NCBI GenBank assembly: GCA_037131955.1
Contig: JBAXQC010000007.1
Span: 3,004-67,003, forward strand
Direction of reading: 5' to 3'
DNA length: 64,000 nt
Origin: Bacteroidota bacterium
GTDB lineage: Bacteria > Bacteroidota > Bacteroidia > UBA4408
Shown here piece by piece: positions 5,189 through 41,430 of this stretch (the stretch's first letter is position 1; every line of letters begins with the position of its first letter). The translations under genes were made by a program, and so were the position numbers. A model generated the notes under the pieces. It was not told the DNA's origin. It saw nothing but the letters and a program-made list of their open reading frames with translations, and did not search any database.

Positions 5189-5617
5189 ATGTTACAACCA
5201 AAAAGAACAAAATATAGAAAACAGCATAAAATGAAAGCTAAGGGCAATGCCATGAGAGGCAACCAAATTGCCTTTGGATCATTTGCTATAAAAGCTGAAG
5301 CTACTTGCTGGTTAACTTCAAGACAAATTGAAGCTGCAAGGGTTGCCGTTACAAGGTTTATGAAAAGAGAGGGACAAATTTGGATCAGAGTTTTCCCTGA
5401 TAAGCCAATTACCAAAAAACCTGCTGAGGTACGTATGGGTAAAGGTAAAGGTGCTCCAGAATATTGGGTGGCAGTAGTTAAACCAGGAAGAATTATTTTT
5501 GAAGCAGATGGCGTTCCAATCGAAACTGCTAAAGAAGCTTTGAGATTAGCTGCCCAAAAATTACCAATTACCACAAAATTTATTGTAAGAAGAGATTATG
5601 TCTCTGAAGTTGCATAA
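5189..5617 (+). CDS. rplP: 50S ribosomal protein L16
   Basis: 142 aa starting [14 protein letters not shown]..., which is canonical for L16. Confidence 0.95.
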
Positions 5618-5634
5618 CAAACAAGAATAAAAAT

Positions 5635-5823
5635 ATGAAGTCAATAGATATCAGAGAATTGTCCACCGAAGAACTTAGCAAAAGAATTGCCGAGGAAAAA
5701 GGACAATTGTCAAAAATGAAACTTAATCACGGAATTTCTCCTCTCGAAAACCCAACTAAAATTAGAATGGCAAGAAGAGTTATTGCTAGATTAAAAACAA
5801 TTTTAAATCAAAGAAAATCCTAA
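5635..5823 (+). CDS. rpmC: 50S ribosomal protein L29
   Basis: 62 aa helical protein between rplP and rpsQ. Confidence 0.9.
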
Positions 5824-5827
5824 TCAA

Positions 5828-6085
5828 ATGGAAGAAAGGAATTTTAGAAAAGAGAGAATCGGTGTTGTTACTAGCAATAAAATGGAAAAGTCTATTGTTG
5901 TTGCAGTTGAAAGAAAAGTAAAACACGAGAAATACGGAAAGTTCTTGAAACTTACCTCTAAATTTGTTGCTCACGACGAAAAAAATGAGTGCAGCATTGG
6001 AGATACCGTAAAAATAATGGAAACTAGACCTCTTAGTAAAAGAAAAAACTGGAGATTAGTAGAAGTAGTTGAAAAGGCTAAATAA
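5828..6085 (+). CDS. rpsQ: 30S ribosomal protein S17
   Basis: 85 aa of S17 family sequence ([28 protein letters not shown]). Confidence 0.9.
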
Positions 6086-6106
6086 TAACATTTTAATCAT
6101 TAAACA

Positions 6107-6475
6107 GTGATACAACAAGAATCAAGGCTAACAGTAGCAGATAACAGCGGTGCAAAAGAAGTTTTGTGTATAAGAGTTCTAGGTGGAACTAAGCGTCGTT
6201 ATGCTTCTGTAGGCGATAAAATAGTGGTGGCAGTAAAACATGCTTTGCCTTCAGGAAACGTTAAAAAAGGATCTGTTTCCAAAGCAGTTATAGTTAGAAC
6301 TAAAAAAGAAGTGAGAAGAGCCGATGGTTCTTACATTCGTTTTGACGACAATGCTGTTGTTCTATTAAACAATACAGACGAAATTAGAGGAACTCGTATT
6401 TTTGGACCGGTTGCTCGTGAACTGCGTGAAAAACAATTCATGAAAATAGTTTCATTAGCTCCAGAAGTACTTTAA
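6107..6475 (+). CDS. rplN: 50S ribosomal protein L14
   Basis: 122 aa starting [18 protein letters not shown]..., which is canonical for L14. Confidence 0.95.
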
Positions 6476-32644: not shown

Positions 32645-34654
32645 ATGCTCTATACATCTAAAAAAATAAAAGATATTTACGATATGATTTTTATTGGCGA
32701 AATATCAATTAAAAAAATAAATATTTTTTTGTTTGTAGGTTTCTTTGTTTTTTCTGCACAAGCCCTTGCACAACCTTCTAACGATAATTGCTCTGGAGCT
32801 GATCTTATTTGTTTTGGTCAAACAATTAATGGTACAAACGTAGCGGCAACATCAGAAATTACTACTTCACCCAGTTGTTTTGCAGTTACAAATTCAGTTT
32901 GGTATAAATTTCAAACTATAAATATGGTTGGTAATCTATCCGTAAATTTATCCAACATTATCTCTAATAATTCTAATCCAAATTTTAGCGTTGCACTTTT
33001 TACTGCAGCCGATTGCAACTCTTCATTTACCGAAATTGCATGCAATTCAAGTGTATCAAATAATGCAACAATTACAGCCAATTCAATTCCTGCTGGCTCA
33101 AATATATGGGTATTGATAGAGGGCGATAATGCCGGTGGAGTTTTGGCAGAAGGTACTTTTGATGTTTCAATTTCTGGAACTGCAGTTGAGCCATCCGCAG
33201 CTATTGTTGTTGACCCGCCTAAATGTAATGCCAAAGGCTCAATTAAAGTTCAAAATATAAAGCAAAGTAATTCACCCATAACATTCTCATTAAACTCTGG
33301 TTCTGCTCAATCAAGTCCGGTTTTTAGTGACCTCTCTGCTGGAAATTATGCAGTAAATATTACAAACGTTGTGGGTTGTTCATTTACTATCTCCGCATTT
33401 GTTTCTGGTGATAGCACTCTAACTTTTAGTCCCAACTCTACACCTGCCGATTGTAATGTACAAAATGGAGCAATAAACATTTCTGGCCTTACGGGTGGTA
33501 GCGGTAACATTACCTATTCGTCAAATGGAAATACTCCTCAAAGCTCTCCAACTTTTAGTAATTTGGGGGCAGGAACATATAATATTACCATCAACTTTGG
33601 CAGCTGCGACACAACCATAAGAGTTTTTGTAAGCTCTAACTCAGGCATTCAATCCGCACAAGCAATAACAACTTTAGCATCCTGTAATGTCTCGGATGGA
33701 CAACTAACTTATCCTCCAAACAGCATTCTTGGAGCAAATGGACCTTTAGCCTATTCATTAAATGGCCCTTCTGGTCCACAAACCAGCAGCACGGGCGTTT
33801 TTACGGGCTTGTCAGTTGGCACATATACTATAATAATTAGAGACAATAGTGGTTTGGGATGTTCCTATACTGACATTGTATATATTTCTGAATTACCTCC
33901 TCCTGTTCCCACAGCAACAACCACAACACCAGATAATTGCCAAGGAAATAGAGGTGTGCTTCAAGTAAGTGGTTTCGGTGGTATTCCTCCATACACTTTT
34001 GCATTAAATAATGGAACTCCACAATCCTCTCCTACATTTGAAGGGTTATTAGCAGGTTCTTATTCAGTTACAATTTTTGATTCTAATGGATGTTCATCAA
34101 CAATTAATTCACCTTTAGATTTTCAGCAATCTGGAGTATCTAACTCTTGTTCCGCCGGTAGCAACAAAGAAATTCTGCAAGGTGAAGCTACAAAATTTAA
34201 CCCCGAATTAAAACCGGGTTCTACCGTTGTATGGAGCCCACCTGTTGCTGTTTTAAATGAAACCGTTGCAAACTCTAGCGTTGCGCCCAATTCTACCACC
34301 ACATATACTATTTTGGTAACTGAGCCAAATGGCTGCACATGCACAGATAATGTTACTATTGTGGTAAAAAAATTGGTTAGAATCTATAATGTTTTCACTC
34401 CTAATGGGGATGGAATCAATGATATTTGGAACATTGAGAATACCGAAAATTATGACAATGTAGAAGTGGATGTTTATGATAGATATGGTCTAAAGGTTTT
34501 TCACTCCAATGGCTATGCACCCGGACAGGAATGGAATGGCAACTCTTCTATTGGTAAAGTTCCCGCAGCGGTTTACTATTATGTGTTTAAATACAATTAC
34601 AAAAACGAAAGCAAAGATTATTTTTTGTCTGGAACAATTACAGTAATTAGATAA
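32645..34654 (+). CDS. Secreted repeat-domain adhesin-like protein with a T9SS type-B C-terminal domain (gliding-motility-associated CTD)
   Basis: 669 aa with a signal peptide and repeated Cys-containing ~90 aa modules. The C-terminus reads VRIYNVFTPNGDGINDIWNIE...VDVYDRYGLKVFHS.... Confidence 0.7.
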   Translation: MLYTSKKIKDIYDMIFIGEISIKKINIFLFVGFFVFSAQALAQPSNDNCSGADLICFGQTINGTNVAATSEITTSPSCFAVTNSVWYKFQTINMVGNLSVNLSNIISNNSNPNFSVALFTAADCNSSFTEIACNSSVSNNATITANSIPAGSNIWVLIEGDNAGGVLAEGTFDVSISGTAVEPSAAIVVDPPKCNAKGSIKVQNIKQSNSPITFSLNSGSAQSSPVFSDLSAGNYAVNITNVVGCSFTISAFVSGDSTLTFSPNSTPADCNVQNGAINISGLTGGSGNITYSSNGNTPQSSPTFSNLGAGTYNITINFGSCDTTIRVFVSSNSGIQSAQAITTLASCNVSDGQLTYPPNSILGANGPLAYSLNGPSGPQTSSTGVFTGLSVGTYTIIIRDNSGLGCSYTDIVYISELPPPVPTATTTTPDNCQGNRGVLQVSGFGGIPPYTFALNNGTPQSSPTFEGLLAGSYSVTIFDSNGCSSTINSPLDFQQSGVSNSCSAGSNKEILQGEATKFNPELKPGSTVVWSPPVAVLNETVANSSVAPNSTTTYTILVTEPNGCTCTDNVTIVVKKLVRIYNVFTPNGDGINDIWNIENTENYDNVEVDVYDRYGLKVFHSNGYAPGQEWNGNSSIGKVPAAVYYYVFKYNYKNESKDYFLSGTITVIR

Positions 34655-35625
34655 TGAGAAAATTTATTAAAAACTTTAACCTTTTTTTTGCCGTAATTTT
34701 TTTGTGGTTTAAGTCACTTTCTGCACAACAATTGCCTCAATATACCAACTATTTGTTAAACTACCATGCATTAAATCCTGCTGCTGCCGGTTCTAATAAT
34801 TGCATGGATTTAAAAGTAGGCGTTAGAACTCAGTGGGTAGGTTTTGAAGGTGCGCCAAAAACTCAATTCCTCCAGGGAAATTACTTTTTAAAAAGAAAAA
34901 GAAAATTGTGGAAAAGATCTAAACATGCTTTGGGTTTTTTATTTGAAAACGATCAAACAGGATCAAGCGGTCCAATTAGGCAAACACGTCTTGCGGTTTC
35001 TTATGCCTATCATGTGCCTATAAGTCGAACTGCTTTTTTTGCAGCAGGATTATACGCAGGATTAAATCAATTTGTGGTTCAATCAGAACGTTTTGACCCA
35101 TTTACACAGGAAGATCCATTGTTAAATGGTTCAGGAAGAAAACTAGTTTACCCTGATTTTAACCCAGGAGTTTTGTTTTATACAGACCAAGGATTTATTG
35201 GATTGTCTGTTAAAAATGCTTACGGAAATAAGCTTGGCGGTGTGTTGGGAGCAGCATCAAAAATGAACAGACACTTTTTTTTAACAGGCGGTTATACTAT
35301 TGGAGGAGAAAGAGCCTTATTCAGATATACTCCTTCTGCAAACTTAAAATTTGTTTCAATGAATTTGCCATCACTGGATGTAAGTTTTATGGTAACATAT
35401 GATAAACTAGTAGACTTTGGCTTTGCTTACAGACTAGTTGATGGAGTGTGTGCTTTTGCAAATTACAGAATAAAAAAATGGTCCGTTGGATATGCCTATG
35501 ATTTTAATTTATCAAAAGTTAGGTATGCAAGTTCTAACTCTCACGAAATTATTGTTTCCTATAAAATTTGTCCTGTAAATCAATCCGACTATAACTCAAA
35601 CGAACATTGTCCTGCCTACAGGTAA
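34654..35625 (+). CDS. PorP/SprF family type IX secretion system membrane protein
   Basis: 323 aa with a signal peptide, then QQLPQYTNYLLNYHALNPAAAGS. The start overlaps the upstream stop (TAATG). Confidence 0.75.
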   Translation: MRKFIKNFNLFFAVIFLWFKSLSAQQLPQYTNYLLNYHALNPAAAGSNNCMDLKVGVRTQWVGFEGAPKTQFLQGNYFLKRKRKLWKRSKHALGFLFENDQTGSSGPIRQTRLAVSYAYHVPISRTAFFAAGLYAGLNQFVVQSERFDPFTQEDPLLNGSGRKLVYPDFNPGVLFYTDQGFIGLSVKNAYGNKLGGVLGAASKMNRHFFLTGGYTIGGERALFRYTPSANLKFVSMNLPSLDVSFMVTYDKLVDFGFAYRLVDGVCAFANYRIKKWSVGYAYDFNLSKVRYASSNSHEIIVSYKICPVNQSDYNSNEHCPAYR

Positions 35626-35945
35626 GTTCTGATAGTTTTTTCTTTCAAGCAATTTTTATTTCTTGGTGTGTGCAAAATGTAACTGTTACCATTAATTTGC
35701 CAAAAGGGAATGTGTTAGCCCAAGTTCTTAAAAGTATATCATATACCTACAATGCCTAAGAATATGGCTTAAACTATAAAATTCTCCCCAAAAAGTTATT
35801 GCAACCAAAACCATTAAATTAAAAAAGGATATTGTAAGCTACTTAGAATATCTTGTTTTTAAAGAATTTTAAAAAAATATCAGAGGCCCACGGAAAACAA
35901 ATAGGATTTAAATAAGCTATATTTGTAAAAACATTTAATAATTCA

Positions 35946-37829
35946 ATGGGGCAACAAAACAACTCACTTTCCGAAGTTCATGAGTCTGTAGATACCCAAC
36001 AAAAAAAAGGTTTTTGGAAAAAACTTTTTTCATTCCTTGGGCCGGCATACTTAGTATCTGTTGGCTACATGGATCCTGGAAATTGGGCAACAGATTTAGC
36101 GGGTGGCAGCAAATTTGGTTACTCTTTGTTGTGGGTTTTACTGATGTCAAACCTAATTGCATTGTTACTTCAAAGTTTAAGTGCCAGATTAGGTATAGTA
36201 AGTGGGCGAGATTTAGCTCAAGCATCAAGAGAAACCTATCCCAAATTTGTTAACTATTGCCTTTATTTTTTAGCAGAAATAGCCATTGCAGCCTGCGATT
36301 TAGCAGAGGTCTTGGGTATGGCAATTGGTTTGCAATTGTTGTTTCATCTTCCACTTTTGGTAGGGGTAAGCATTACCATTCTTGATTCTTTTTTATTGCT
36401 CTTTTTAATAAACTTTGGAATAAGAAAAATGGAAGCATTTATTATATCCTTAGTTGCAATTATTGGATTTTCGTTTTTAGCAGAAATGATTTTTGCTCAA
36501 CCTAATTTTGCAGATGTTATAAAAGGTTTTAAACCTACAATACCATCGGAAGGTGCTTTGTACATTGCAATAGGAATAATTGGAGCAACGGTAATGCCTC
36601 ATAATTTATACTTGCATTCTTCTTTAGTGCAAACACGAAAATTTTCTAGAATTCCTGCTGAAATAAAAAAAGTTATCAAGTATAATTTTATTGATTCTTT
36701 AGTGGCGTTAAATCTTGCCTTTTTTGTAAATGCATCTATTTTAATTTTAGCAGCTTCTGCATTTTATTACAACGGAATGTTTGAGATTGCAGAAATTCAG
36801 GATGCTTATAAATTTTTGGAGCCAATGGTAGGAAATAGATATGCACCCCTTTTGTTTGCCATAGCTTTAATTGCTGCAGGACAATCTTCTACAATTACTG
36901 GAACTTTAGCTGGCCAAATTGTAATGGAAGGATACATTAATCTAAGAATTCAGCCTTGGATGAGAAGATTGCTTACCAGACTAATTGCAATAATTCCTGC
37001 CTTTTTAACCATCTATTTTTTGGGCGAGGGTGCCACTGGAAAATTATTGGTTTTTAGCCAAGTAATTTTAAGTATGCAATTGGCTTTTGCCATTATTCCA
37101 CTTATACATTTTGTGAGCGATAAAATAAAAATGGGTGAATTTGCAATTGGTGCAAAAACAAAATTTTTTTCATGGGTGGCTGCCTCCATAATTGTTGTTT
37201 TAAATTTAAAGTTGGTTTTCGAAGAATTAAAAGGACTTTCAGAAATCGAGAATTTGAATTTTATTTGGTTGGTATTTGCATATTCTATTGCAATTGCATG
37301 TTTAGGATTATTACTATTTATTGTTTTTGATCCTATCTTAAAACGCAGAGAAATAAAATCGCAAAAAACTCCGCACATTGCTATTGGAAAAATTGAACCT
37401 GCAAAAAAAGTAGAGTTCAAAAAAATTGCAGTTACTTTAGATTTCTCCGAAACAGATGCCAAAACGCTTCAGTATGCTATTTCATTGGCAGCAGCAAACA
37501 CTCAATTCTATATTATTCATATTTCCGAAACTGCGGGTGCATTGGTTATGGGCAATGAAATTAGAGACATGGAAAGCGAAGAAGATGCAAATTTTTTGAA
37601 CGAATATTCCAAAAAACTAAGCGATTTAGGCTTTGAGGCATTTGCTGTTTTAGGATACGGCAATCCCAAAAAATCTATACCTGAATTGGTAAACAAAATA
37701 GAACCCGATATTTTAATTATGGGAGCTCACGGCCATAAAACTCTAAAAGATTTAATTTTAGGAACCACAGTTGATGCCGTAAGACACAATATTTCTGTTC
37801 CACTATTGGTGGTTAAAAGAAAAATGTAA
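35946..37829 (+). CDS. mntH: Nramp family divalent metal (Mn2+/Fe2+) transporter fused to a C-terminal universal stress protein (UspA) domain
   Basis: 627 aa. Nramp consensus (GPAYLVSVGYMDPGNWATDLAGGS...) across ~11 TM helices. The last ~150 aa form a USP fold (KKIAVTLDFSE...ILIMGAHGH...VPLLVV). Confidence 0.8.
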   Translation: MGQQNNSLSEVHESVDTQQKKGFWKKLFSFLGPAYLVSVGYMDPGNWATDLAGGSKFGYSLLWVLLMSNLIALLLQSLSARLGIVSGRDLAQASRETYPKFVNYCLYFLAEIAIAACDLAEVLGMAIGLQLLFHLPLLVGVSITILDSFLLLFLINFGIRKMEAFIISLVAIIGFSFLAEMIFAQPNFADVIKGFKPTIPSEGALYIAIGIIGATVMPHNLYLHSSLVQTRKFSRIPAEIKKVIKYNFIDSLVALNLAFFVNASILILAASAFYYNGMFEIAEIQDAYKFLEPMVGNRYAPLLFAIALIAAGQSSTITGTLAGQIVMEGYINLRIQPWMRRLLTRLIAIIPAFLTIYFLGEGATGKLLVFSQVILSMQLAFAIIPLIHFVSDKIKMGEFAIGAKTKFFSWVAASIIVVLNLKLVFEELKGLSEIENLNFIWLVFAYSIAIACLGLLLFIVFDPILKRREIKSQKTPHIAIGKIEPAKKVEFKKIAVTLDFSETDAKTLQYAISLAAANTQFYIIHISETAGALVMGNEIRDMESEEDANFLNEYSKKLSDLGFEAFAVLGYGNPKKSIPELVNKIEPDILIMGAHGHKTLKDLILGTTVDAVRHNISVPLLVVKRKM

Positions 37830-38347
37830 TGAATAAAATTATTAAAAAAATTGCATTTGTTGGACCAGAATCAACAGGAAAAACTACCATATCTAATTCT
37901 GTTGCCAAAAAATTTTCTGAGCCTTGGGTAAATGAAATTGCAAGAGATTACCTCCAAGCAAATGGTCCCAAATACTCTCAATCCGACATCTATGCCATCT
38001 CTGAGCTACAACTGCAAAGAGAAAATGAGCTCCTTAACAAATCTGAGAAATTTTTATTTTGCGATACCAACCTTTTGGTTTCAATAGTTTGGAGCCAATT
38101 TGTTTTTGGAACTGTTTCTACTGAGTTAAACAATTTGTTTGTACCCCATTCCTATTCTCACTACTTTTTGTGTAACATAGATGTGCCTTGGCAATACGAC
38201 CCGTTAAGAGAACACCCTAATCAAAGAGAAGAACTATTTTTGATGTATCAATCTAAATTAGAAAAGTACAAAGTATCATATTCAATTTTATCAGGCTCAA
38301 ACGAATACCGTTTGCAGCAAGCTTCCAAAATAATTTTAACGCTTTAA
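37829..38347 (+). CDS. P-loop ATPase, nicotinamide-riboside-kinase-like (NadR C-terminal/AAA_28 type)
   Basis: 172 aa with Walker A (VGPESTGKTT). The start overlaps the mntH stop (ATGA). Confidence 0.55.
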   Translation: MNKIIKKIAFVGPESTGKTTISNSVAKKFSEPWVNEIARDYLQANGPKYSQSDIYAISELQLQRENELLNKSEKFLFCDTNLLVSIVWSQFVFGTVSTELNNLFVPHSYSHYFLCNIDVPWQYDPLREHPNQREELFLMYQSKLEKYKVSYSILSGSNEYRLQQASKIILTL

Positions 38348-38396
38348 TTGCACTATTTATTAAATTTGCTGAGTATATTTAAGAAATTTTTTTAGT

Positions 38397-39776
38397 ATGA
38401 GTTGTAACAGTTGTGGTACGGGTGAAAATGGATTGCCAAAAGGATGCAACAACAATGGTGCATGTGGTTCGGGGGGATGTAATACAAAACTTACTGTTTT
38501 TGATTGGTTAGCAAATATGGAGTTTCCGGGAATGGCAAAGCCCTTTGATATTGTTGAAGTAAGATTTAAAAATAGCAGAAAAGAGTTTTACAAACTAGAA
38601 CCAGACATGGAGTTTTTTAAAGGCGATATTGTGGCCGTTGAAGCTTCTCCGGGTCACGACATAGGCATTGTTTCCCTCACAGGCGATTTGGTGAAATTGC
38701 AAATGAAAAAGAAAAATGTTAGAGCAGATTCACCCGAATTAAAAAAGGTTTACCGAAAGGCAAAACAAATGGACATTGATAAATGGCAATCGGCCAGAGA
38801 GCTAGAAGAAAAAACAATGTACAAAGCAAGAACCATTGCAGTTAAGCTAAACCTTCAAATGAAAATTAGCGATGTAGAATACCAAGGCGACAAAACCAAA
38901 GCCATTTTTTACTACACTGCCGAAGATCGTGTGGATTTTAGAGACCTTATAAAAGTTTTGGCCGACGAGTTTAAGGTTAGAATAGAAATGAAACAAATTG
39001 GTGCAAGGCAAGAAGCGGGGAGGCTTGGTGGAATTGGCAGTTGTGGAAGAGAATTGTGTTGTTCTACGTGGCTTACAGATTTTAGGTCGGTAAGCACAAG
39101 TGCTGCAAGGTATCAGCAACTTTCGTTGAACCCGCTAAAACTTGCAGGGCAATGTGGCAAGCTAAAGTGCTGCCTAAATTATGAGCTAGATAGCTACATG
39201 GATGCCATAAAAGATTTCCCGGAAAGTGGGGTAAAACTGTTTACAAAATCGGGGGCTGCTTTTCATCAAAAAACAGACATCTTTAAGCGTACTCTCTGGT
39301 ATTCCTACGAAAGCGACCCTGGAACTTTTATTCCTCTTTCTGTTGAAACAGTAAAAGAGATTATTGAACAAAACAAAAATAAAATTTATCCTCCAGATTT
39401 TACCATAGCTAAACCTATAGAAGCTAAAAAAACATCTGAAATGTATTACGAAAATGTGGTGGGGCAAGACAGCCTTACTAGATTTGACCAAGACAAAAAC
39501 AAAAAGAAAAAGAAAAAGAAAAACAACAGAAATAAATCGGTAGGCGATTCTCCACAAATCCAAAAATTAACAAATGAGGTTCAACCTGCCGGACTTTCAC
39601 CACAAAAAAATACTACCGATCCAAATAAATTAAATAAGGAAGCAAAACAAAACCCAAAACAACAAAACCGAACACACCAACCCAACAGAAACAACAATAG
39701 AAACAATCCAAACAGAAACAATAAACCACAAAACAATAACCCTAACTCAAGCAATGCAGCGCCAAAAGATAACTAG
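38397..39776 (+). CDS. PSP1 C-terminal domain protein (RicT/YaaT-like) with a Cys-rich N-terminus and a long N/K/P-rich low-complexity tail
   Basis: 459 aa with a PSP1-like core. It begins with a Cys cluster (CNSCGTG...GCNNNGACGSGGC) and ends with a K/N/P-rich tail. Confidence 0.5.
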   Translation: MSCNSCGTGENGLPKGCNNNGACGSGGCNTKLTVFDWLANMEFPGMAKPFDIVEVRFKNSRKEFYKLEPDMEFFKGDIVAVEASPGHDIGIVSLTGDLVKLQMKKKNVRADSPELKKVYRKAKQMDIDKWQSARELEEKTMYKARTIAVKLNLQMKISDVEYQGDKTKAIFYYTAEDRVDFRDLIKVLADEFKVRIEMKQIGARQEAGRLGGIGSCGRELCCSTWLTDFRSVSTSAARYQQLSLNPLKLAGQCGKLKCCLNYELDSYMDAIKDFPESGVKLFTKSGAAFHQKTDIFKRTLWYSYESDPGTFIPLSVETVKEIIEQNKNKIYPPDFTIAKPIEAKKTSEMYYENVVGQDSLTRFDQDKNKKKKKKKNNRNKSVGDSPQIQKLTNEVQPAGLSPQKNTTDPNKLNKEAKQNPKQQNRTHQPNRNNNRNNPNRNNKPQNNNPNSSNAAPKDN

Positions 39777-40230
39777 TATTTTCTTCCTTTTATGGATAGC
39801 ACTGTTATTCAGTGCTTGTGATTCATCAAGAGTTTTTGAAGAAAATAAAATAATAGAAAACCAACTTTGGAACAGTGCAGACAAAAAGCTCTTTTATGTA
39901 AATGTAGACGATACGCTATCTTCACATAATTTTTACATCAACGTAAGAAATGCCTCAGATTATCCGTTTAGCAATTTATTACTTTTTTTGCAAACCCGCT
40001 ATCCACAAGGCACTTATTCAAAAGATACGTTAGAATGTATTTTGGCCGACCAAACAGGTAAATGGCTGGGAGACGGTTCTGGCGATATATGGGACAATCA
40101 AATATTGTTTAGAAAAAACTTTAAGTTTAAAAGAAAGGGCAAATATGTTTTTTCTCTTGAACAAGCCATGAGGTTAGAAAATTTACCTCAAATTTTAGAT
40201 GTTGGAATAAGAATAGAAAAATCTTTTTAG
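39754..40230 (+). CDS. gldH: Gliding motility lipoprotein GldH
   Basis: 158 aa lipoprotein (LLFSAC DSSRVFEE...) with the GldH-like pattern ...YPFSNLLLFL...KDTLECILADQTGKWLGDGSGDIW...GKY...GIRIEK. It overlaps the PSP1 gene by 23 nt. Confidence 0.7.
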   Translation: MQRQKITSIFFLLWIALLFSACDSSRVFEENKIIENQLWNSADKKLFYVNVDDTLSSHNFYINVRNASDYPFSNLLLFLQTRYPQGTYSKDTLECILADQTGKWLGDGSGDIWDNQILFRKNFKFKRKGKYVFSLEQAMRLENLPQILDVGIRIEKSF

Positions 40231-40234
40231 TAGA

Positions 40235-40993
40235 ATGCAAGACAATGTTGTTTTATCTAGTTTAATTGAAGCCAAAAAGAAAGGGAAAAAATTACTTTTC
40301 CTGCTTATCGACCCCGATGATTTTGACGAAAAGAGGTTTGATTTTTCTTTGTTGGAACAAATTGATGTTTTGCTGGTGGGTGGCAGTTTAATTTCTAGTG
40401 GTAACCTAAATTCATGCATAAATTTTTTTAAAAGTAACATTGCCATTCCTGTAGTAATTTTTCCTGGAGCTCCCTCTCACATATCGGCAAATGCTGATGC
40501 AATTTTATTGCTTTCGCTAATATCTGGTAGAAATGCCGACTTACTTATTGGCAACCATGTTTCTGCAGCTTTTGCACTAAAAAAATCTAACATAGAGCTT
40601 ATACCAACTGGATATCTGATTGTAGATGGAGGAAAGCCCACAACTGTTTCCTATATTAGCAACACACAACCCATACCAGCAGATAAACCAATGATTGCCG
40701 CCGCTACTGCACTAGCGGGAGAGCAGTTAGGTCTTAAAGTTATTTACCTTGACGCAGGAAGTGGGGCTTGGCATTGTGTTTCTGAAAATATGATCAAATC
40801 TGTAGAAAAAACTGTTTTGCTGCCAATAATTGTTGGAGGAGGAATAAGAACAAAAGATGATGCCATAAATAGTTGGAGAGCTGGGGCAACAGCAATAGTA
40901 GTTGGCAATGCCGCAGAAAAAAATCCTCAAATAATTGAAGAAATAAACCAAGAAAAAATTAAACTAAACTTTGAATTAACAGAAAAAATATGA
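40235..40993 (+). CDS. Geranylgeranylglyceryl/heptaprenylglyceryl phosphate synthase family protein (PcrB-like TIM barrel)
   Basis: 252 aa of GGGPS family sequence (LLFLLIDPDD...VLLVGGS..., ...IYLDAGSGA..., VGGGIRT...VVGNA). Confidence 0.7.
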   Translation: MQDNVVLSSLIEAKKKGKKLLFLLIDPDDFDEKRFDFSLLEQIDVLLVGGSLISSGNLNSCINFFKSNIAIPVVIFPGAPSHISANADAILLLSLISGRNADLLIGNHVSAAFALKKSNIELIPTGYLIVDGGKPTTVSYISNTQPIPADKPMIAAATALAGEQLGLKVIYLDAGSGAWHCVSENMIKSVEKTVLLPIIVGGGIRTKDDAINSWRAGATAIVVGNAAEKNPQIIEEINQEKIKLNFELTEKI

Positions 40994-41430
40994 GCTTAGA
41001 AGAACAAATTAATGCCGACATAAAAGCCGCAATGTTGGCCAAAGAAAGTGCAAAACTAGAAGCACTAAGAGCAGTAAAATCTGCCATATTATTATTAAAA
41101 ACATCTGCAGATGGCTCTGCACCTGATGCAGAACTAAAGGCTTTGCAAAAAATGGTGAAGCAAAGAAAAGAAACTGCCGAAATTTATACAAGCCAAAGCA
41201 GAGGAGATTTAGCAGAGGTGGAATTGTTTCAGGCTGCAATTATAGAGCAATATTTGCCTAAGCAATTGAGCGGAGCAGAATTAGAAGAGCAAGTAAAAGC
41301 AATTTTAGTAGCTGCAGGAGTTTCAGGTGCTGCAGAAATGGGAAAAGCCATTGGCATGGTAAACAAAGCCCTTGCCGGAAAAGCAGAAGGCAAAGCAATT
41401 GCAGATATGGTAAAAAAACTATTGACTTAG
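40990..41430 (+). CDS. yqeY: GatB/YqeY domain protein
   Basis: 146 aa (MSLEEQINADIKAAMLAKES...LRAVKSAI...). The start overlaps the upstream gene by 4 nt. Confidence 0.8.
   Translation: MSLEEQINADIKAAMLAKESAKLEALRAVKSAILLLKTSADGSAPDAELKALQKMVKQRKETAEIYTSQSRGDLAEVELFQAAIIEQYLPKQLSGAELEEQVKAILVAAGVSGAAEMGKAIGMVNKALAGKAEGKAIADMVKKLLT

Follow-up and report, generated by a model that had tools for sequence, protein, structure and literature searches.

Among Slc11/Nramp metal transporters, the MntH CaU (MCaU) subgroup presents 12 transmembrane (TM) segments and frequently a C-terminal universal stress protein (USP) domain, whereas the related MCa subgroup has 11 TM segments (Cellier, 2022, Front Cell Dev Biol; PMC9606685). 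In the phylogeny of the family, MCaU is placed as the sister group of the eukaryotic prototype Nramp pN-II. MCaU proteins are mainly found in Bacteroidetes, with 1161 non-redundant sequences (PMC9606685), and Desulfovibrio ND132 likewise has a protein that joins Nramp and USP (PMC8401546). Fusions of USP domains to transporters have been reviewed (PMC12159084), and binding of c-di-AMP was reported for the USP domain of KdpD (PMC4686210). In the literature that we searched, no assay of transport or of nucleotide binding by the USP tail was found for any MCaU member. Besides, the nicotinamide riboside (NR) transporter PnuC and a NadR-type ribosylnicotinamide kinase (RNK) together form the NR salvage route called "salvage III" (PMC2330246).

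We analysed here a 64-kb stretch of Bacteroidota DNA, hereafter the window, in which a gene for an Nramp-USP protein is directly followed by a gene for a small kinase. With a probability that we put at about 80%, this locus is best explained by an MCaU importer, behind which an NR kinase was relocated once from its place next to pnuC, and upstream of which the deletion of a neighbouring gene left a scar.

The Nramp-USP protein

The gene located at 35946..37829 on the forward strand codes for an Nramp/MntH permease of 627 aa, which is of the MCaU type and is made of an Slc11 core, a 12th TM helix and a C-terminal USP domain; a sequence-identical protein, MEI6522337.1, is present in NCBI and originates from a Bacteroidota metagenome-assembled genome. 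The Nramp core (36084..37151, forward strand) matches Pfam Nramp (PF01566) over residues 47-402 with an E-value of 9.6e-133, and the product scores 586 bits against the NCBIfam MntH model NF001923, the cut-off of which is 430 bits. Among solved structures, it matches ScaDMT (5m94, E 1e-102) and EcoDMT (5m87, E 4e-95). The TM1 motif D43-P-G-N46 and the TM6 motif A214-T-V-M217-P-H219 are invariant in our alignment of homologues (A1) and align with their DPGN and AxxMPH counterparts in ScaDMT; their residues are those that we take to be the metal ligands, according to the known Nramp structures. Given these conserved metal-site residues and those of the proton pathway, the protein would be an H+-dependent importer of Mn2+ (Fe2+) with a canonical metal-binding core.

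Downstream of the core, an additional hydrophobic segment is apparent in the hydropathy profile at residues 434-467 (37245..37346, forward strand) and is followed by the basic stretch KRREIKSQK. AlphaFold2 (AF2) predicts a helix at residues 439-465 with a pLDDT of about 82-85, and the alignment to EcoDMT, which has 12 TM helices, extends to residue 462. This 12th helix and its basic stretch would return the C-terminus to the cytoplasm, and hence place there the USP domain, which lies behind a linker (residues 467-481) predicted to be disordered. The full-length AF2 model, built on an alignment of 20 sequences, reached a pLDDT of only 63 and served solely to define the layout of TM12, linker and USP domain; within it, the USP region adopts an alpha/beta fold with a pLDDT of about 80-89.

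The USP domain itself (37416..37817, forward strand) matches Pfam Usp (PF00582) at residues 491-624 with an E-value of 7.1e-21, covering positions 2-141 of the 141 of the profile, so that the permease and the C-terminal USP domain proposed in the initial annotation were both recovered by the Pfam search, and both open reading frames were found at the positions that it had given. Among solved structures, the best match of this domain is MJ0577, a protein that binds ATP (1mjh, E 3.6e-12), and TeaD (3hgm) was also matched. The ATP-binding motif G-x2-G-x9-G-T of the MJ0577/UspFG class is present at 37722..37769 (forward strand; G593 AH G596 HKTLKDLIL G606 T607 T608), and G593-x2-G596-x9-G606-T607 aligns with the same motif in MJ0577. 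Alignment A1 shows no variation at G596, G606, T607 or T608, and at least 90% of its sequences have G593; similarly, D499, the N-terminal aspartate of the ATP-binding USP class, is conserved in A1 and aligns with that of MJ0577. These residues suggest that the tail binds a nucleotide. This single domain of the ATP-binding class would most likely serve as a regulatory tail, nucleotide-sensing or dimerising, and nucleotide-gated metal uptake is a reasonable inference for MCaU proteins as a whole rather than for this locus specifically.

The fusion is not new, and the protein belongs, as an ordinary representative, to a widespread Bacteroidota class that has already been published. Among the matches listed, all 120 homologues, of 615-635 aa, carry both PF01566 and PF00582, and a full-length Nramp-USP match was obtained in each of 80 genome loci, which span Flavobacteriales, Cytophagales, Chitinophagales, Sphingobacteriales and Bacteroidales; the relatives almost all belong to Bacteroidota. 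A search of a representative library with the TM12 and USP part returned mostly gene fragments and gave no useful count, full-length members being collapsed into a few 50% clusters.

The kinase and its enzyme family

The second gene (37829..38347, forward strand) encodes a stand-alone P-loop kinase of 172 aa that belongs to the AAA_28 family (PF13521, E 1.6e-31, 110 bits for a cut-off of 27 bits). Its resemblance to the RNK domain of NadR, already noticed in the initial annotation, was borne out and is restricted to that domain. Indeed, the match to the NadR model TIGR01526 is confined to positions 162-318 and reaches 71 bits for a cut-off of 341 bits, and, of the NadR structures 9x6f and 1lw7, only the RNK domain aligns with the protein (residues 171-327 of 1lw7). 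The fused NMN adenylyltransferase domain of full NadR is absent from this short protein. By homology and by the PnuC context of its relatives, the product is most likely an NR kinase. Family members of this kind would normally trap as NMN the NR that has been imported by PnuC, the gene of which precedes theirs.

Among the metagenome loci that could be assessed, relatives of the kinase gene directly follow pnuC in 60 of 72, and the same order was seen in three contigs that we looked up. In the window, no pnuC was found, either next to the kinase gene, where Nramp-USP takes the upstream position, or elsewhere. An orphan kinase, deprived of its PnuC partner and decaying or already non-functional in this lineage, might be expected from such an absence, but the coding sequence is intact in all members of the clade and the protein retains all 23 family-invariant residues. 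The invariants across 24 homologues include the Walker A motif G12-PESTGK18-T, the Walker B residue D79 and W121..D124..R127. Moreover, in the comparison with L081, a relative at 98%, identity amounts to 97-98% at codon positions 1 and 2, against 89% at position 3; since the first two positions are more alike than the third, the gene appears to be under purifying selection, and decay is very doubtful.

Origin of the Nramp-USP/kinase adjacency

In the initial annotation, the kinase was thought to belong functionally with the transporter, and a survey of relatives does not bear this out. Within 6 kb on either side of Nramp-USP, the kinase was found in none of the 80 genome loci, whether by tblastn with E-values up to 10 or by a search for the Walker A motif; it is thus not a conserved neighbour of Nramp-USP, an outcome that the initial annotation had itself named as a refutation. 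The adjacency is confined to one narrow clade, and in a neighbour-joining tree the Nramp-linked kinases form a single clade nested inside the PnuC-linked radiation. Within this clade, the two genes are part of a block of four, which begins with a gene for a type IX secretion system (T9SS) cargo protein with a CHU_C domain (32645-34654, forward strand) followed by a PorP/SprF gene (34654-35625, forward strand), both recognized by Pfam. The order CHU_C, PorP, Nramp-USP and kinase is the same in loci L081 to L087, and, compared with their L087 counterparts, the proteins are 49% (CHU_C), 56% (PorP), 65% (Nramp-USP) and 52% (kinase) identical. The gene downstream of the kinase varies in the clade, being either PSP1 or an unknown gene of 289 aa. 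The adjacency is most likely a lineage-specific accident of gene order: in one ancestor of the clade the kinase gene would have been relocated behind Nramp-USP, and it would then have been retained in this tightly packed, co-directional block.

At the junction of the two genes, the initial annotation had reported a four-nucleotide overlap (ATGA); the reading frames do overlap, but by a single base, in a TAATG junction (37827..37831, forward strand; aaaATGTAATGaat) where the stop codon TAA (37827-37829) and the start codon ATG (37829-37831) share one nucleotide. The same overlap of 1 nt with TAATG is found in L086, whereas L087 presents TAGTG with a GTG start and L173 an overlap of 17 nt. An overlap of stop and start is therefore kept in every clade member seen, down to 52% kinase identity, with different codons. 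The two genes probably share a transcript, and their translation may be coupled. Some selection for their co-expression is conceivable from the sequences, since the overlap is kept clade-wide although codons and downstream neighbour change. However, overlaps occur in 6 of the 51 same-strand neighbour pairs of the window, including functionally unrelated pairs next door such as PSP1/GldH (-23) and PcrB/YqeY (-4).

This persistent overlap is the first of several observations that could be taken to indicate a dedicated partner of the transporter, that is, a kinase that docks on the USP domain, or that supplies or consumes the nucleotide sensed by it, and through which NAD/NR or energy status would gate the entry of Mn2+. 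The analogy is with NadR, whose RNK domain stands behind a related nucleotide-binding domain. The intact ATP-binding motif of the USP domain would be compatible with such a partnership, as would the repeated proximity of the kinase family to membrane transporters, namely PnuC and, in another subclade, an MFS-like protein that adjoins the kinase gene. We consider it improbable, however, because the association arose only once and is missing from the 80 other Nramp-USP loci, because PorP and CHU_C, two unrelated genes, have stayed adjacent at least as consistently, and because the kinase keeps the residues that it shares with PnuC-linked enzymes, in addition to the frequency of overlaps between unrelated genes mentioned above. 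A co-option of the relocated NR kinase-like protein as a partner of the USP tail, which would echo NadR by analogy and tune Mn import to NAD-precursor or adenylate status, is likewise very improbable. Altogether, we found no evidence of a shared function of the kinase and Nramp-USP, and relocation from pnuC remains the preferred reading.

Loss of the usual regulator

Elsewhere in Bacteroidota, the recurrent neighbour of Nramp-USP is a regulator of the DtxR/MntR type with the domains Fe_dep_repress, Fe_dep_repr_C and FeoA. This regulator was found in 55 of the 80 loci, and in 46 of them its gene immediately precedes Nramp-USP in the same orientation. A palindrome, TTTAGACAAATCTAAA, precedes Nramp-USP in about 39 of the 80 loci when up to two mismatches are allowed. 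That Nramp-USP is usually accompanied in Bacteroidota by a regulator of the MntR type, for which a clear candidate operator is present, supports a role of the subgroup in manganese uptake. Neither a homologue of the regulator nor a box of this kind was found in the loci of the clade studied here. Similarly, the window contains no regulator homologue, and its only matches to the box have three mismatches, occur at chance frequency and are not located upstream of Nramp-USP. This clade has lost the usual arrangement of an MntR-type regulator and a candidate operator. Such a loss could be seen as a need for some other control, which a partner kinase might provide; this would speak for the partnership judged improbable above.

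The interval upstream of Nramp-USP

Between PorP and Nramp-USP, a gap of 320 bp (35626-35945) had been described as a non-coding leader. It contains no intact gene, but it is not a leader. The stretch 35658..35912 (forward strand) is a pseudogene relic that corresponds to the last 86 codons of a gene with TPR, DUF3857 and transglutaminase-core regions, interrupted by four in-frame stops. The intact gene is present in one relative, L173 (338-4090 of the locus), where it encodes 1250 aa and is located between PorP and Nramp-USP; tblastn of its product against the relic gave an E-value of 7e-16 with 42 identities over 86 positions. In L086, L087 and L173, the equivalent gap measures 58, 12 and 28 bp, respectively. 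Read from these sequences, the gap is the apparent scar of a deletion of about 3.5 kb that removed a neighbouring gene, and not a regulatory leader.

A cis-regulatory leader of the transporter, for instance a riboswitch for a metal or a nucleotide, would draw its main argument from the last 200 bp of the interval, which differ from L081 at three positions only, against 85% identity at the fourfold-degenerate sites of the gene. Purifying selection on the spacer was considered on this account and rejected, as a sliding comparison with L081 revealed a mosaic divergence with equally clean 400-bp stretches in coding DNA, so that near-identity is no sign of constraint. Furthermore, no Rfam match was obtained at gathering thresholds in the whole window, the interval itself gave only chance matches at E-values up to 10, and its fold z-score of -0.01 indicates no stability beyond that of shuffled sequences. 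As the region also shows homology to the 3'-terminal part of a coding gene, and as relatives either lack it or have only 12-58 bp in its place, a riboswitch or other leader is extremely unlikely, and the deletion scar is retained.

The consensus of the Bacteroidetes -7 promoter element is TAnnTTTG. The sequence TATATTTG at 35918..35925 (forward strand), 20 nt before the ATG, fits it and is a weak candidate promoter only; the chance of such a match in 320 bp of this base composition is estimated at roughly 20%, and the match is not conserved in L173 or L086. A scan for sigma-70 style promoters and terminators, which is ill-suited to Bacteroidota promoters, gave counts at or below shuffle expectation. 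The spacer was also considered as a repeat or mobile element and rejected, since BLAST against the window and all loci recovered it as a single copy, present only in the relatives at 98%.

Comparison with known systems

The kinase shares the AAA_28/RNK family with the PnuC and NadR-type RNK systems, and the genes of its nearest relatives outside the clade overlap the 3' end of pnuC, whereas here the kinase gene stands behind Nramp-USP. Unlike full NadR, it is a stand-alone enzyme devoid of NMN adenylyltransferase and helix-turn-helix domains. The transporter, for its part, presents no structural difference from MCaU proteins, with which it shares the Slc11 core and its canonical metal-site motifs, a count of 12 TM segments instead of 11, a C-terminal USP-like domain and a Bacteroidota host, the group being abundant in environmental metagenomes. 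The clade differs from most of the surveyed MCaU loci by the absence of the adjacent MntR-type regulator and palindromic box and by the NR kinase-like gene that follows.

Compared with the solved transporters ScaDMT, EcoDMT and DraNramp (5m94, 5m87 and 5kte), the core shows strong similarity (E-values from 1e-102 to 1e-90) and has the same DPGN and AxxMPH motifs, and TM12 is shared with EcoDMT, whereas none of these solved proteins has a cytoplasmic USP domain. The same ATP-binding type of USP is encountered in TeaD, which is associated with the TRAP transporter TeaABC, in the USP domain of KdpD, and in USP fusions to amino-acid permeases or Na+/H+ exchangers. In all of these systems, as in Nramp-USP, the USP is joined to, or encoded with, a transporter or sensor and is presumed to act as a nucleotide-responsive regulator. 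The carrier is here an Nramp, and the USP tail sits on about a thousand transporters of this family.

The Nramp-USP protein

The two ORFs of the initial annotation are present on the + strand, the first (35946-37829) encoding a 627-aa protein and the second (37829-38347) one of 172 aa, and their domains were recovered as described, with Pfam Nramp (residues 47-402, E 9.6e-133) and Usp (residues 491-624, E 7.1e-21) in the former and AAA_28 (E 1.6e-31) in the latter. Their NCBI entries, from a Bacteroidota MAG, are MEI6522337.1 and MEI6522338.1. The 627-aa product scores 586 bits against the NCBIfam MntH model (cut-off 430 bits), and its Nramp core resembles solved bacterial transporters very closely (ScaDMT 5m94, E 1e-102; EcoDMT 5m87, E 4e-95; DraNramp, about 1e-90). 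The motifs DPGN of TM1 and A-x-x-M-P-H of TM6, which form the Mn2+/Fe2+ site in published Nramp structures, do not vary in an alignment of 20 diverse homologues.

Beyond the 11 core helices lies an additional hydrophobic segment (434-467) followed by KRREIKSQK, and the alignment with the 12-helix EcoDMT extends to residue 462. The AlphaFold model, whose overall pLDDT of only 63 restricts its use to domain layout, predicts helix 439-465 with confidence, followed by a disordered linker (467-481) and an alpha/beta domain (491-622). Such an extra helix would provide the topology that a cytoplasmic C-terminal domain requires. Among solved structures, that of the ATP-binding protein MJ0577 comes closest to the USP domain (E 3.6e-12), and this relationship, together with the motif G-x2-G-x9-G-T (G593, G596, G606, T607) kept throughout the alignment, makes nucleotide binding likely. 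A literature search turned up no experiments on this tail in Nramp proteins.

The kinase and its relatives

The 172-aa product aligns with NadR, in models and structures alike, only over the ribosylnicotinamide kinase part. Bacteroidota commonly encode AAA_28 proteins of this stand-alone kind, 165-195 aa long. The genes of all three relatives looked up (about 48% identity) overlap the 3' end of a gene for the nicotinamide-riboside (NR) transporter PnuC (NMN_transporter). Similarly, among 80 metagenome loci found by kinase alignment, 72 of which had enough upstream sequence, PnuC lies directly upstream of the kinase in 60 and about 170 bp away in one more, and Nramp precedes it in none. PnuC and the NadR kinase domain form an established NR salvage route (PMC2330246). 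By homology, the kinase of the window would thus belong to the PnuC-type NR kinases; it is most likely a working enzyme, since it retains all 23 family-invariant residues and its substitutions follow a pattern of purifying selection.

A separate AAA_28 subclade carries the Walker A variant GPECTGK[ST] and has no PnuC link (loci L147:3375-5247, L172:3465-5247, L148:1749-3579, L171, L124, L128 and L164). Its kinase genes are followed, overlapping or closely, by one whose product of about 410 aa is a membrane protein of MFS-like appearance, and preceded on the opposite strand by one for an amine-oxidase-like protein bearing a signal peptide.

Usual neighbours of Nramp-USP

A scan with one genome per species yielded 80 Nramp-USP loci. 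This survey counts against the kinase as a conserved partner of Nramp-USP, the point on which the initial annotation was open to refutation: no homologue was found within ±6 kb in any of the 80 loci, whether by tblastn at E 1e-5, by tblastn at E up to 10 or by a Walker-A search of ORFs. Clustering of the flanking ORFs revealed what does recur beside Nramp-USP: a DtxR/MntR-type metalloregulator of 216 aa (domains Fe_dep_repress, Fe_dep_repr_C and FeoA), found in 55 loci and, in 46, encoded immediately upstream in the same orientation. A 16-bp palindrome, TTTAGACAAATCTAAA, is enriched upstream of the regulator genes or, in several Flavobacterium loci, of Nramp itself. Copies with at most two mismatches occur in about 39 of the 80 loci (L002:5212-5227, L009:4926-4941, L048:5296-5311 and about 36 others), and we infer a candidate MntR operator. 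Regulator and box are both absent from the window and from the loci of its clade, the close relatives in which the kinase follows Nramp-USP; the window holds only three-mismatch matches to the palindrome, at chance frequency and none upstream of Nramp-USP.

The upstream interval

The interval 35626-35945, between PorP/SprF and Nramp-USP, had been described as a non-coding leader. It has no Rfam match, shows no folding stability beyond that of shuffled sequence (z = -0.01) and corresponds to gaps of only 58 and 12 bp in two relatives (L086 and L087). In another relative, L173, a gene for a 1250-aa TPR/DUF3857/transglutaminase-core protein lies between PorP and Nramp-USP. With this protein as tblastn query, 35658-35912 was matched at E 7e-16: the stretch agrees with the final 86 residues at 42 of 86 positions and is interrupted by four in-frame stops. 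The interval is therefore a gene relic, what remains after a deletion of about 3.5 kb. Twenty nucleotides before the Nramp-USP ATG, TATATTTG matches the Bacteroidetes -7 consensus and is a weak promoter candidate.

The 3' 200 bp of the interval are almost identical to those of a 98% relative. This was not read as constraint, because divergence from that relative is mosaic (0 to 20 differences per 100 bp) and coding DNA is equally clean in places. Between 33000 and 40500, regions of 300-400 bp that differ from L081, the closest relative and part of the 98% cluster, at no more than one position alternate with 100-bp blocks of 15-20 differences (for example 36301-36400 and 37901-38000), which suggests recombination within the population or a chimeric metagenome assembly. 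The PSP1/RicT-like gene ends in a long N/K/P/Q-rich low-complexity tail (39500-39776), strongly variable and indel-rich against the 98% relative, with 53-60 differences per 100 bp (0-5 nearby); its product has 459 aa in the window and 473 aa in that relative.

Origin of the adjacency

Nramp-USP followed by the kinase is seen only in close relatives of the window, namely the 98% cluster (L081-L085), L173 (kinase 80% identical), L086 (Nramp 78%, kinase 56%) and L087/L088 (Nramp 65%, kinase 52%). In an NJ tree the Nramp-linked kinases form a single clade nested inside the radiation of PnuC-linked kinases, a pattern that points to a single relocation: a PnuC-type NR kinase gene would have landed behind Nramp-USP once, in one clade.

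The junction reads aaaATGTAATGaat; stop TAA and start ATG have one base in common (TAATG), and not the ATGA first reported. An overlap of stop and start is present in every clade member (TAATG, TAATG and TAGTG; 17 nt in L173). Overlaps occur in 6 of the 51 same-strand neighbour pairs of the window, two of them, PSP1/GldH and PcrB/YqeY, a few genes further on. Nine tightly packed co-directional genes of mixed function, several with stop/start overlaps, occupy 32645-41430 (among them CHU_C cargo, PorP/SprF, Nramp-USP, kinase, PSP1/RicT, GldH, PcrB-like and YqeY), so packing is a poor guide to shared function in this genome. The clade also retains, upstream, CHU_C and PorP/SprF (49% and 56% identity in L087, its most distant member), secretion genes of unrelated function, so the pairing is no better conserved than the position of these neighbours. 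In L087 a 289-aa protein without Pfam match (5516-6385) follows the kinase with a 4-nt overlap, in place of PSP1.

Co-transcription of both genes is likely and translational coupling possible; shared function is not indicated. The clade that carries the pair has lost the MntR arrangement usual elsewhere, and recruitment of the kinase there to act with the USP tail is a reading we consider very improbable. Overall, the initial observation largely stands and its interpretation does not.

Relation to known Nramp-USP proteins

Both Pfam domains are found in 120/120 homologues among the matches listed (120 of at least 8000), at lengths of 615-635 aa, and all 80 surveyed loci match essentially the entire 627-aa query. 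Their hosts are Flavobacteriales, Cytophagales, Chitinophagales, Sphingobacteriales, Bacteroidales and a few MAGs that carry the label of another phylum. One of the loci, L061 (QFQQ01000031.1), from a MAG labelled Citrobacter freundii, has the palindromic box upstream of an Nramp-USP of Bacteroidota type and is probably a mis-binned Bacteroidota contig.

The ligand of the USP tail and its effect on transport would be matters of the whole subgroup to which such fusions belong, named MntH CaU (MCaU; Cellier, 2022; PMC9606685). This subgroup, with 12 TM segments and frequently a C-terminal USP domain, comprises 1161 non-redundant sequences principally from Bacteroidetes and environmental metagenomes, and a eukaryotic prototype Nramp was put forward as its origin (PMC9606685). 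An Nramp+USP protein was also remarked in Desulfovibrio ND132 (PMC8401546), and USP domains fused to permeases or ion exchangers have been recognised as a class (PMC12159084). The Nramp-USP fusion is thus common and already described, and that of the window is an ordinary member of the abundant MCaU.
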